Of a stretch of DNA of 64,000 nucleotides, positions 44,985 to 47,290 are shown in pieces; position 1 is the stretch's first letter, and every line of letters begins with the position of its first letter. The stretch lies in IMG/VR virus record IMGVR_UViG_3300024333_000003; one strand, 5' to 3'. The position numbers and the translations under genes are program-made. The notes below the pieces were generated by a model. It made no database searches. It saw nothing but the letters and a program-made list of their open reading frames with translations, and was not told the DNA's origin. This DNA is from a virus (taxonomy: Duplodnaviria > Heunggongvirae > Uroviricota > Caudoviricetes).

Positions 44985-45189
44985 TGATAGACAAGACTAA
45001 GAAAGTTTGTGACGCATGTAAGAAACTCATCAGAGATGGAGAACGCATGCGACTTATCAATAATTATCAGTTACATATGGAAGAGTTCTGTTTTTTCCTA
45101 TACACGGAAAAGGTTAAAAACGGAATTTTACGTGTGCCATTCACAATAGAAAAAAGACACGATCTATAGCTATAGTTTAATTTATCCAT

Positions 45190-45430
45190 GATTCATTTAG
45201 GATTTTTCTATTGCGTTACGCAATGGAATTTTTAATACGCGATTTCCAGATACACGCGTCCTGCTCGTCTTGCGACTCGCCGCCTTCGGCTCGGCCGCGC
45301 GGGCGTGGAAATCGCGTGCAGGCAGAGATCCATGGTCCTCCAGATCCTGGTGGCGCCGATCGCGATGACAGACGTCTAAGGGCACCCTGTGCAGCTTAAG
45401 CGTCGGTCGGCTGCATGCATATAACGAGCT
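45190..45430. other. ~240-bp GC-rich (~60% GC) structured island in a ~35% GC genome, candidate retron msr/msd-type ncRNA
   Basis: internal inverted repeat acgcgatttcc (45238) / ggaaatcgcgt (45308) and several palindromes; flanked by the palindromic repeat tatagctat(a) at 45166 and 45479. Confidence 0.35.
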
Positions 45431-45485
45431 CTGTAGCAAAAACCCCCATTCATAACAACCAAATATTTTTTAAAATTGTATAGCT

Positions 45486-45731
45486 ATGTATAAAAAACGC
45501 AGTATAGCAGTAAATGTTTTAAAATTACCAAACGGTAATTATCAACTAATCGATACATTCGGCAGGAAAGAAGAAGTAACTCCGGTCGAATTCCACAGAT
45601 ATGTAGTACCTGACCATACCTCTCCCGAAGTCAAAAACGTCGACATGAAAGATGAATTACAACAAATTTATTCGTTCATACAGTCTGGGGACATAGAGAG
45701 CGCTAGCGCAAAGTTGGAGCTTCTACTTTAA
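45486..45731 (+). CDS. hypothetical protein
   Basis: 81-aa ORF between the GC island and the RT. Confidence 0.3.
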   Translation: MYKKRSIAVNVLKLPNGNYQLIDTFGRKEEVTPVEFHRYVVPDHTSPEVKNVDMKDELQQIYSFIQSGDIESASAKLELLL

Positions 45732-45902
45732 TTATAGTTATTCGGTGAAGACCTCCCGATAGAGACGCGTTACGCGTTTTCGACACATAGTAACTAAGAA
45801 CGATTAAATAAAAGACGCCCCGTAGAGTATAATATAAAGATTACAGAAGTTTCACCTTCTATAGCTTTATTCGTAAAAACGAAAACAAGTGCGCTACGTA
45901 CT

Positions 45903-46919
45903 ATGTATATTACTGACTTCATATTATCACGATGGAAATTATCCGCCGCAATACACATTGCGGAGGACCAATTTCTAGTATGGAAGGGTGAAGGGTGGAA
46001 GATCTTCTTCCACCTATTTTTTTTACTTATGACTATTTTTGAATTTTTAGAACTAGATAGGGAAGAACTAGCTAAACTAGATATCCCGCGAAATTATATC
46101 ACTTTTTATATTGTAAAAAGTAATGGTAAGCGAATGCGTCGAATAGATGCTCCGCTGCCAAGATTAAAAGAGATTCAAAAACAAATATTACACAAACTCA
46201 TATATAAATTTAAACCACATGAACTTGCGCATGGGTTTGTCGTAAATCGTAATCCTGCTACTAATGCTCAACAACATGTAGGAAAGAAATTTATTGTAAA
46301 AGTAGATATAAAAAACTTTTTTCCTTCTATAAAAACACATCAAGTGGATGCATTGATACGCCATTTAGCCATAAGATTATCTTTAACTTGGGATATTATT
46401 GATACAGCGTTAATAGCTAATGTATTGTGTTTCAATGGCTCTTTACCGCAAGGATCCCCTGCATCGCCCGCAATAACCAATCTCATATGTTACGCGCTGG
46501 ATGTGGATCTGGCAAAATTACAATATTCGAATTCCTGTATAATTACTAGATACGCGGATGACATCACAGCATCCACCGACACATATAAAAATGCGCTCCA
46601 AGCAAAATATATGATTATACGGACATTACGACAGTACAATTTTGTATCAAATAGATTAAAATTACGTATTGTGGGGAATCACAAACGACAAAAGGTTACA
46701 GGTATTGTAATAAACAACAAACTAAATACAACAAAGGAAACATGGAGAAATCTAAGAGCGGCGATACACAATTTGTCCGGTGGGAGCATTTCGGAAAAGG
46801 TATATCAACAATTGCGCGGGAAGATAGAGTGGCTGAAATCATTGAACCCAGCCAGGGGAGAGAAGCTGTTGTCAGAACTTACAAAAATAAGTGTGAACAA
46901 GCTTTCGACAGCTACCTAA
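45903..46919 (+). CDS. retron-type reverse transcriptase
   Basis: RT motifs RRIDAPLPRLKEIQKQIL, VKVDIKNFFPSI, LPQGSPASP, YADD catalytic box; retron-specific NAxxH (NAQQH) and VTG (RQKVTGIVINN) signatures. Confidence 0.7.
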   Translation: MYITDFILSRWKLSAAIHIAEDQFLVWKGEGWKIFFHLFFLLMTIFEFLELDREELAKLDIPRNYITFYIVKSNGKRMRRIDAPLPRLKEIQKQILHKLIYKFKPHELAHGFVVNRNPATNAQQHVGKKFIVKVDIKNFFPSIKTHQVDALIRHLAIRLSLTWDIIDTALIANVLCFNGSLPQGSPASPAITNLICYALDVDLAKLQYSNSCIITRYADDITASTDTYKNALQAKYMIIRTLRQYNFVSNRLKLRIVGNHKRQKVTGIVINNKLNTTKETWRNLRAAIHNLSGGSISEKVYQQLRGKIEWLKSLNPARGEKLLSELTKISVNKLSTAT

Positions 46920-47032
46920 AATTAGGATTGTCCTACCTAAAACTGCCTTTAATATCAATAGGTCTTTATAACACAATAGACGGTCCCAGGGTTCTTTATA
47001 CAGGTTCTGAGAACAGCGTTCTATTAACAAGT

Positions 47033-47290
47033 ATGCAGTTCATTATTGAGTTTAGTTTGGACAGAACTATCGAAGTATATATGCAACGTATGTATTTGCA
47101 GCAGGTAATTACAAAATTTTATGGTGGGCATTACACACCAACAAGAGGATTCCACTATTTGCTAAAAACTAACAAATCTACTGGAATTCAGATACATATT
47201 AGTTCATTATCACAGTTTGAAAAAGCTGTAGATGCACTTATAAAAGAAGCAAATCGCTTCATGTACATGTATTGTCGTACAGATATATAA
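47033..47290 (+). CDS. hypothetical small protein downstream of RT (possible retron effector)
   Basis: the track ORF 46742..47290 overlaps the RT 3' end by ~180 nt in another frame; the internal Met (MQFIIEF) after the RT stop is the likelier start. Confidence 0.25.
   Translation: MQFIIEFSLDRTIEVYMQRMYLQQVITKFYGGHYTPTRGFHYLLKTNKSTGIQIHISSLSQFEKAVDALIKEANRFMYMYCRTDI

Follow-up and report, generated by a model that had tools for sequence, protein, structure and literature searches.

What does a retron-like reverse transcriptase (RT) do in the genome of a tailed phage, and which RNA would it copy? Retrons are known as bacterial anti-phage systems comprising one RT, one template RNA and one toxin. 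We addressed these questions on a stretch of 64,000 nucleotides (nt) from the Caudoviricetes record IMGVR_UViG_3300024333_000003, hereafter called the window, in which an RT gene lies downstream from a GC-rich island. The original prediction, made from the letters of this DNA, saw a retron whose non-coding RNA (ncRNA) was the island itself. Our analysis indicates that the locus is probably a phage-encoded retron in which a single RT (46029-46919) serves three tandem msr-msd-type RNAs encoded on the same strand, named U0, U1 and U2, with the island being the first of them. The RT type, the grammar of the units, their covariation and their syntenic conservation were shown by computation. Positions are those of the window and features lie on the plus strand unless stated otherwise; related loci are designated by L numbers.

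The reverse transcriptase belongs to the retron type

The predicted open reading frame (ORF) 45903-46919 exists and carries the YADD, NAQQH and VTG motifs attributed to it. These correspond to the hallmarks of retron RTs, namely NAXXH in region X, the VTG triplet in region Y and the catalytic YADD (PMC7736814). In an alignment of 12 family members, residues A122, H125, Y217-D220 and G267 of the RT are invariant. The ORF matched RVT_1 at 2e-20 and the PADLOC retron RT models at 1e-48 to 3e-71, the retron models of PADLOC and NCBIfam giving the RT 158-239 bits. The NCBIfam model of retron St85 gave 216 bits, slightly below its equivalog cut-off of 235 bits, and the Mestre types XIII, XI, III-A, X and II-A were near-equal, with no single type preferred. 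The strong matches in the PDB were all retron RTs, Ec86 coming first (6e-37), followed by Ec67, Kva2, Ec83 and Ec78, while a group II RT among the solved structures reached only 2e-4. By both the hidden Markov model (HMM) scores and the ranking of PDB matches, the RT is of the retron type and not of the group II, diversity-generating retroelement (DGR) or Abi type.

The start assigned to this ORF, at 45903, did not hold. The alignment of homologues and the stop codons upstream place the true start at the ATG at 46029, giving a protein of 296 amino acids (aa) with the N-terminus MTIFEF... (46029-46919). Most of the approximately 120 homologues are listed with about 295-310 aa and align only to residues 45-338 of the ORF. 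The conserved N-terminus M(T/D/Q)I(F/Y)... of the 12 aligned homologues corresponds to ATG 46029, and in most relatives stop codons are found just 5' of the homologous Met. Because the relatives start at this Met with stops just upstream, 45903-46028 is taken as non-coding and is, judging from these alignments, an open-frame artefact overlying the putative RT-proximal ncRNA.

Three tandem msr-msd-type units precede the RT gene

Comparison of the window with its clade-A relatives revealed a repeated unit with a constant grammar. It opens with a first arm (a1) and an invariant G, continues with two hairpins, one small and variable and the next conserved (YGCG-NNN-CGCR), and ends with a variable "msd" body, a G and a second arm (a2). 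Three YGCG-NNN-CGCR hairpins are located 5' of the RT in each clade-A locus (two in the truncated L092), and in the window their cores lie at 45211, 45765 and 45889. The context of the hairpin is constant as well, with about 10 nt ending in (T/C)A, the G, the small variable hairpin (found in 18 of 20 units), an A-rich linker and then the conserved hairpin. The 10-14 nt that precede the G of every unit are matched by a complementary stretch further downstream, immediately in front of the following unit or gene. A small protein gene, p81 (45486-45731), separates U0 from U1.

The RT-proximal unit, U2 (45850-45993), has a canonical msr-msd layout and abuts a terminator-like hairpin and the RT. It consists of a1 (TTTCACCTTCTATA, 45850-45863), a candidate priming G (45864), a small hairpin (45870-45883), the conserved hairpin (45885-45906), an msd hairpin (45933-45977) and a2 (TATGGAAGGGTGAAG, 45979-45993, with one bulge relative to a1). 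The a1/a2 stem of 13-14 bp, one bulge included, stops 36 nt short of the RT ATG. In its predicted fold, the 144-nt RNA combines this stem with two msr hairpins and one msd hairpin, as in a textbook retron, the minimum free energy (MFE) structure being identical to the centroid (z = -5.83; 0 of 200 shuffles fold as well). Part of U2 falls within the mis-called 5' end of the RT ORF, which is why this unit was overlooked at first.

An assumption-free search for the best long-range helix was made in the intergenic region between p81 and the RT of seven clade-A loci. The top helix had the a1/a2 topology of U2 in all seven loci, as a perfect duplex of 10-11 bp in the six relatives and as a 9-bp helix with a G-U pair in the window. 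A G directly follows its 5' arm; AG comes before its 3' arm, whose end lies 18-62 nt upstream of the RT ATG. The arms are wholly different between loci, for example AAATCCCCACA/TGTGGGGATTT, CAAGTTGCACA/TGTGCAACTTG and AAGCCGCACG/CGTGCGGCTT, with CGGCCACACG/CGTGTGGCTG and AAAACCACACG/CGTGTGGTTTT as further pairs. Between the array and the RT start lies a GC hairpin followed by a T run (45993-46024), and an equivalent hairpin and T run of other sequences occur in L004, L006, L089, L090, L092, L017, L019 and the Staphylococcus phage MarsHill. This conservation of a terminator-like element in position and not in sequence suggests attenuation between the template array and the RT.

The middle unit, U1 (45726-45839), is made of a1 (45726-45736, containing the p81 stop codon), the G (45737), a small hairpin (45742-45759), the conserved hairpin ACGCG-TTA-CGCGT (45762-45780) and a2 (45828-45839), with an 11-bp stem and one bulge. 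Its fold closes with a1/a2 and has comparative support from seven loci, where the arms vary as AACATACA/TGTATGTT, AAGCGTA/TACGCTT, AGTGTA/TACACT and TCTAAATA/TATTTGGA. Two short motifs pointed out earlier as parts of the retron, the palindrome cgcgttacgcg and a copy of tctatagct, do look functional, but they belong to other units than the island. The former, which starts at 45766 as given, is in the conserved hairpin of U1 (GCGTTACGC occurs at 45213 and 45767). The latter, given as 45860, starts at 45858 (TATAGCT being at 45860) and represents the end of the U2 a1 together with G45864.

The GC-rich island corresponds to U0 (45165-45487), a putative long retron-type ncRNA closed by TATAGCTATA and TATAGCTAT. 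The 100-nt windows of 45200-45449 have a GC content of 53-66%, compared with about 23-37% in the flanks and about 33-35% in the genome. The a1 arm (TATAGCTATA, 45165-45174) contains the stop codon (TAG, 45167-45169) of p61, a small Cys-rich (CDAC...) ORF at 44984-45169, and is followed by the candidate priming (branching) G at 45175. Then come a small hairpin predicted by folding (45184-45203), at a position where 18 of 20 units have a hairpin, of differing sequence, and the conserved hairpin with the core TTGCG-TTA-CGCAA (45206-45228), delineated by covariation and by the covariance model. The candidate msd template is the GC-rich body (45236-45440), identified from the GC profile, an inverted repeat and the fold. 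It includes a long hairpin, CGCGATTTCCA/TGGAAATCGCG (45236-45318); an equivalent base stem of different sequence was read by eye, not counted, in relatives. A G precedes the a2 arm (TATAGCTAT, 45479-45487), which shares bases with the start codon of p81 (45486-45488). Both copies of the palindromic repeat said to bracket the island are thus present, the second at 45479 and the first at 45165, one base off the announced 45166.

With its bracket, the MFE fold of U0 closes on a1/a2 (z = -3.06; 0 of 100 shuffles), so that U0, like U2, shows the anticipated msr/msd topology with a G directly after a1. Folding the island without its flanks was insignificant (z = -1.5 and -1.0), and significance needs the a1/a2 bracket. 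The count of TATAGCTAT alone is within chance (3 found versus 1.2 expected; at least 3 in 13 of 100 shuffles). We consider the repeat real because three of the six plus-strand copies of TATAGCT in the 64 kb cluster in these approximately 700 bp and because the bracket motif occupies the same two positions in six related loci. The bracket is an identical palindrome in the six clade-A loci having this region, hence the lack of covariation there. Compensatory brackets were found in L011 (CATAACTACA-G...G-TGTAGTTATG), L009 (GTTTCTATA-G...AG-TATAGGAGC) and L012 (CACTTCTATA-G...AG-TATAGGAGTG). The interior of U0 has no sequence conservation and no common reading frame, and the unit length ranges from 259 to 821 nt. 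Variable interiors between conserved ends would be the behaviour expected of msd "cargo". The msr/msd reading of the island therefore stands as to topology, closure and the position of the G, but two more units exist, and one of these, not the island, is proximal to the RT.

Covariation and controls support the unit grammar

Covariation of a1/a2 was computed on fixed-length extracts of 20 units from the seven clade-A loci. Pairing was found in 89.5% of the cells, with compensatory changes at 10 of 10 pairs and a covariation score of 0.909 versus 0.29 in shuffled controls (0 of 500 as high), while slid registers of the same extracts gave 25-50% pairing. For the conserved hairpin, 97.5% of the cells were paired, four of six pairs were compensatory and 0 of 500 shuffles reached its score. 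The G after a1 and the G before a2, neither of which guided the choice of arms, are invariant in 20 of 20 units; the G after a1 is also present in the units of distant relatives and of MarsHill. Over a larger set of 42 units from 14 loci, the best uninterrupted a1/a2 run averaged 8.8 versus 5.0 in shuffles, and 15 units were above the 99th percentile of the shuffled controls. The G-U wobbles, in the hairpin as in a1/a2, favour the plus strand, which is the RT strand.

A covariance model of the msr module, run on the 64-kb window, had plus-strand matches only at the three units, the one other match being the reverse strand of the palindromic hairpin of U0. The model also recovers U0 of L011 and L009, both outside its training set. 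Within the 1.7 kb upstream of the RT, the density of the hairpin motif is 12 times that found elsewhere. Prediction of retron ncRNAs has relied on an inverted repeat of more than 8 bp, a priming G and hairpins adjoining a retron RT (PMC10849725), and the units show all three at the sequence level, with stems of 13-14 bp in U2 (one bulge), 9-10 bp in U0 and 11 bp in U1 (one bulge).

A proposed mechanism

We infer from this organization that the units are co-transcribed, that the RT recognizes the hairpin, that priming occurs at the G and that multicopy single-stranded DNA (msDNA) is produced. In each RNA, a1 would pair with a2 and set the invariant G at the base of the stem. The RT would recognize the shared msr module, composed of the small hairpin and then the conserved YGCG-NNN-CGCR hairpin, prime on the 2'-OH of the G and copy the variable body into DNA. 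Three different branched msDNAs would result, from templates of about 50 nt (U1), about 75 nt (U2) and up to about 250 nt, GC-rich (U0). The terminator-like hairpin after U2 could keep the template RNAs in excess over the RT mRNA. As to function, we favour a role of the reverse-transcribed DNAs in the infection programme of the phage itself, for instance as decoys or sponges against host defences, because the locus is inherited like a core phage module and has no recognizable toxin.

The locus is a conserved module of a jumbo-phage lineage

The contigs encoding RTs 38-55% identical to that of the window reach 93-215 kb. They share a gene order comprising a bpMoxR ATPase, a VWA protein, p61, a GC-rich non-coding region, p81, 300-400 nt of non-coding DNA, the RT, a small protein (p120) and a 300-aa protein (p300), and continuing with a 174-aa protein and an MVP-shoulder protein. 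The locus is thereby shown computationally to be a conserved syntenic module of a jumbo-phage lineage. More distant members of the family carry two to six units, with three modules each in L017 and L019. Hypervariability of the template bodies between strains was ruled out, since contigs with the same RT are 99.8-100% identical.

In L015, six tandem conserved-hairpin modules lie 5' of the RT (2690-4001) with no p81-like ORF between them, and at least three have clear 8-11 bp a1-G...AG-a2 brackets.

A megablast search of the locus against 50,697 phage records gave no match, and tblastn of the RT against phage records gave at most 34% identity, with no close cultured phage. A scan of viral contigs returned one distant RT only, and no RT closer than about 40% identity was found among 185,579 bacterial species representatives. 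The closest RT in the genome collection (37% identity) lies on a 22-kb contig of a Saccharibacteria metagenome-assembled genome (L098, CAZTWZ010000001.1) and starts at the same conserved N-terminus; this contig may be a mis-binned phage fragment. The MVP-like protein of the window (49726-52206, 826 aa) has homologues in related loci with precomputed Pfam MVP-shoulder and weak vault-like matches. Its sole relatives in the phage database, 42% identical to it, are proteins of uncultured "huge phage" assemblies of 462-735 kb (LR756500/1/3).

An independent array in phage MarsHill

A similar arrangement was found in the Staphylococcus jumbo phage MarsHill (L096, MW248466.1), where a 1.2-kb non-coding region 5' of the RT gp206 holds five tandem retron-type units. 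This region corresponds to 700-1890 of L096, with the units at about 213,900-215,050 of MW248466. The units recur with a period of 173-213 nt, and their conserved hairpins are located at 795, 1008, 1205, 1415 and 1588 of L096. Each unit carries a different hairpin that looks GC-richer than its flanks, and four of the five have a perfect 10-14 bp a1-G...G-a2 bracket, such as TATTTTATTATAAA/TTTATAATAAAATA and TTTCGATTTAAA/TTTAAATCGAAA. A terminator (1818-1847 of L096) follows the array and precedes the RT. In the passages retrieved from the MarsHill preprint by a term search, an ncRNA in this 1.2-kb upstream region is only hypothesized (bioRxiv 10.1101/2020.12.14.422802). Like the present lineage, MarsHill is a lytic jumbo phage whose retron-like RT lacks a linked effector. 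It differs in its RT, which shares only about 28% identity and has an annotated N-terminal extension of 200 aa, in its conserved hairpin (CATTATATG-AATA-CGTATAATG) and in its unrelated neighbour genes. Taken with the arrays of the window family, the MarsHill array therefore shows that at least two jumbo-phage groups, unrelated to each other and one of them cultured, contain such arrays. The best phage RT match, from Staphylococcus phage SA 1306 Kay, has about 245 nt upstream of the RT and no array.

A broader proposal, which we put forward tentatively as somewhat less likely than not, is that lytic jumbo phages carry natural multiplex retrons. In these, one RT would copy two to six templates, including some of 250-800 nt, and flood the cell with distinct branched single-stranded DNAs (ssDNAs) serving infection or anti-defence.

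Alternative explanations

The RTs usually reported in phages belong to DGRs, group II introns or Abi/DRT-type defence systems, and weak HMM matches of this RT to such models do exist. They amount to 60 bits for the group II maturase TIGR04416 (cut-off 300) and to 24-35 bits for Drt2, Drt3a, Drt4 and AbiA (cut-offs 200-450), far from the scores of the retron models, and the PDB ranking is led by retron RTs. No pair of template and variable repeats, the sign of a DGR, was present in the window, where 45160-46030 has no repeat elsewhere beyond chance 10-16-mers, and Rfam detected no intron RNA family in the window or the locus. At the level of sequence classification, the DGR reading is refuted by the missing repeat pair and the RT class, and the group II intron and Abi/DRT readings by the low HMM scores; we regard an RT of any of these types as extremely improbable here. 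The composition of the island, strikingly unlike the rest of the genome, could also point to foreign or protein-coding DNA, or to another structured RNA (intron or ribozyme) that merely lies near the RT, and open frames of 60-80 aa do occur in it (45197-45439 on the minus strand and 45211-45399 on the plus strand). However, tblastx revealed no protein-level conservation between the islands of relatives, save for the close pair L006/L089, which rules out a coding region, and no Rfam family was matched in the window or in seven relatives. The island is free to vary in length and sequence, in contrast to its retained a1/a2 bracket and 5' msr-like module, and we judge an origin of this kind very improbable.

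Other readings concern what the units do. The modules, consisting of TATAG plus a hairpin, might be signals for phage transcription or RNA processing, such as a phage-specific promoter that carries a stem-loop at the 5' end, or RNase sites where genes meet, unrelated to reverse transcription. Indeed, TATAGCTATA is sequence-conserved, palindromic and exactly at the p61 stop and the p81 start, and the conserved hairpin 45206-45228 with its T-rich tail also scores as terminator-like. Yet the motif is not found at other gene starts in the 64 kb, which rules out TATAGCT as a general phage promoter, and the covariance model has no other plus-strand match in the window. Moreover, the a1 sequences of U1 and U2 are entirely different in relatives and always complementary to a partner 100-230 nt downstream, and the modules occur only upstream of retron RTs, including that of the unrelated MarsHill. 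Such a signalling role is, in our estimate, improbable. A more serious, though still unlikely, explanation is that U2 alone works as a retron ncRNA, U0 and U1 being duplicated msr-like modules that are not reverse-transcribed and act as RNA-stability elements or as RT-binding sites regulating p81 translation or RT levels. U2, which adjoins the RT, is far better formed than the others, and U1 is weak in the window. The overlap of the U0 a2 with the p81 start and the p81 stop codon within the U1 a1 mean that pairing could control p81 translation, and in type VI retrons a structured hybrid RNA represses a small effector ORF (10.1101/2025.10.22.683967). Against this, every element of the grammar (a1, G, two hairpins, G, a2) is retained in U0 and U1, where relatives show compensatory changes. 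In addition, L015 and MarsHill have six and five units without an ORF between them, so that p81 regulation is not a general reason for multiple units.

Several points weigh against a retron with three templates, the case for which is inference from sequence throughout. U1, although it closes with a1/a2, is thermodynamically weak in the window (z = -0.66). Pairing counts are biased upward for U0 and U1, as their a2 arms were picked by searching for the best duplex, and the covariation of U0 derives only from the three more distant loci L011, L009 and L012. The invariant palindrome of U0 in clade A could equally be a DNA-level site for protein binding. A template of 250-800 nt is, to our knowledge, far longer than any characterized msd, and textbook retrons have no terminator-like hairpin immediately 5' of the RT. 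Nor could the effector that belongs to the tripartite retron definition be identified. Finally, no Rfam retron family was matched, either in 44900-47500 (E < 10) or in the seven relatives (E < 0.1). As few retron ncRNA types are covered by Rfam, this result says no more than that the ncRNA differs from the described types. Over the whole window, Rfam at the gathering score returned only a tRNA, namely a tRNA-Ala (anticodon TGC) at 21317-21390, the sole Rfam or ARAGORN match in the 64 kb.

Neighbouring genes and candidate effectors

The genes around the array were examined for a possible effector. The ORFs at 45486 (p81), 47033 (within p120) and 47441 (p300) had been named as candidates; none matches a known effector family in Pfam, PADLOC or NCBIfam, and no PADLOC model rose above noise for p81, p120 or p300. 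Stand-alone (msr-msd)-RT cassettes are known (PMC7736814). The frame starting at 47033 extends upstream to a TTG at 46928, so that p120 (46928-47290) has 120 aa and begins 8 nt after the RT stop codon. Its homologues of 103-117 aa share an invariant C-terminal motif, EANRFMYMYC, and p120 is the likely partner protein. No match to p120 was found in Pfam, in PADLOC, among the NCBIfam defence and effector models or among PDB folds, and its 85-aa form had only an NCBIfam nucleosidase match, far below threshold. The AlphaFold2 model of p120, built from four sequences, has a mean predicted local distance difference test (pLDDT) score of 55.6 and is unusable; Foldseek gave no PDB match to it below E = 0.06. 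A word-index homologue search returned three homologues for the 85-aa form of p120 and only the identical sequence for p81.

The p81 protein has no family match and is detected by tblastn at 33-37% identity in all clade-A loci. In clade B, ORFs of 110-150 aa with a similar-looking sequence occupy its position, below tblastn detection. Likewise without a family match, p61 is found by tblastn directly before the GC island in L002, L004, L006, L010 and L011; it is a syntenic neighbour whose membership in the system is uncertain. On the other side, p300 (47441-48343) is 60-72% identical in relatives and has a sub-threshold radical-SAM match (Pfam, 5.7e-4), with no PDB or phage match; its membership is doubtful.

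Upstream, the VWA gene is split into three parts (41075-42334, 43484-43579 and 44772-44981), which jointly represent residues 1-513 of the protein, which is uninterrupted in L002. The two insertions measure about 1.15 kb, each contain a homing-endonuclease-like ORF (42362-43306, DUF559/Vsr-like, and 43623-44600) and look like two introns bearing homing endonuclease genes; Rfam found no group I or II intron in this gene region (41075-44981). L004 and L017 have a different, single insertion in the VWA gene. Between p300 and the 174-aa gene, a 279-aa ORF (48355-49194) with repeated zinc-ribbon motifs and a PHROG match to HNH endonucleases (2.7e-8) is probably another free-standing homing endonuclease; relatives carry other small ORFs at this position.

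Comparison with known retrons

The closest characterized reference is Retron-Eco1 (Ec86), whose RT is the best solved relative (6e-37). The window locus shares with it the RT clade and its NAxxH, YADD and VTG motifs, as well as the a1/a2 arms, the priming G at the end of a1, the msr hairpins and an msd hairpin directly 5' of the RT. Eco1 has one ncRNA per RT, a recognizable toxic effector and a bacterial defence-island or prophage context, whereas the window locus, syntenic within a jumbo-phage lineage, comprises three units (relatives having two to six) and lacks a known effector. It further differs by one GC-rich template of 250-800 nt and by the terminator-like hairpin between the array and the RT. 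Temperate phages and satellites also carry retrons, for example retron Ec73 on the P4-like element phiR73; retrons of such temperate elements are accessory defence cargo with one ncRNA each. The retron of the window, in contrast, is a vertically conserved module of large, apparently virulent phages.

The type VI Retron-Vpa2 (10.1101/2025.10.22.683967) also has a small ORF in a structured transcript with a pairing start region, comparable to the overlap of the U0 a2 with the p81 ATG. In Vpa2, this small ORF is the toxin of a bacterial defence system and lies inside a single a1/a2-closed RNA, whereas p81 is flanked by two units that close separately, and some relatives (L015) lack it. Engineered "multitrons" (PMC10370050) resemble the window locus in having tandem msr-msd units and one RT that yields several RT-DNAs. 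They are synthetic, Eco1-based constructs for multiplex genome editing, of which the window locus would be the natural counterpart. A term search of the text of the multitron paper found no mention of natural arrays, and the searchable literature yielded engineered arrays only (PMC10370050), with neither natural retron arrays nor a characterized lytic-phage retron.

Judged by its sequence features, the locus fits the sequence-level definitions of a retron and differs from the described retrons in having several units per RT, one very long GC-rich putative template, no recognizable effector and a lineage-wide syntenic position. A multiplex retron belonging to the phage itself would, if confirmed, reverse the usual anti-phage role of retrons. 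Its occurrence as a lineage-wide jumbo-phage module, together with the similar arrangement in MarsHill, points to reverse transcription as part of the phage's own strategy. If several templates are indeed served by one RT, the array would be a natural version of the multitron editing arrays, and templates of 250-800 nt, if real, would imply RTs capable of making unusually long ssDNA, useful as editing donors.

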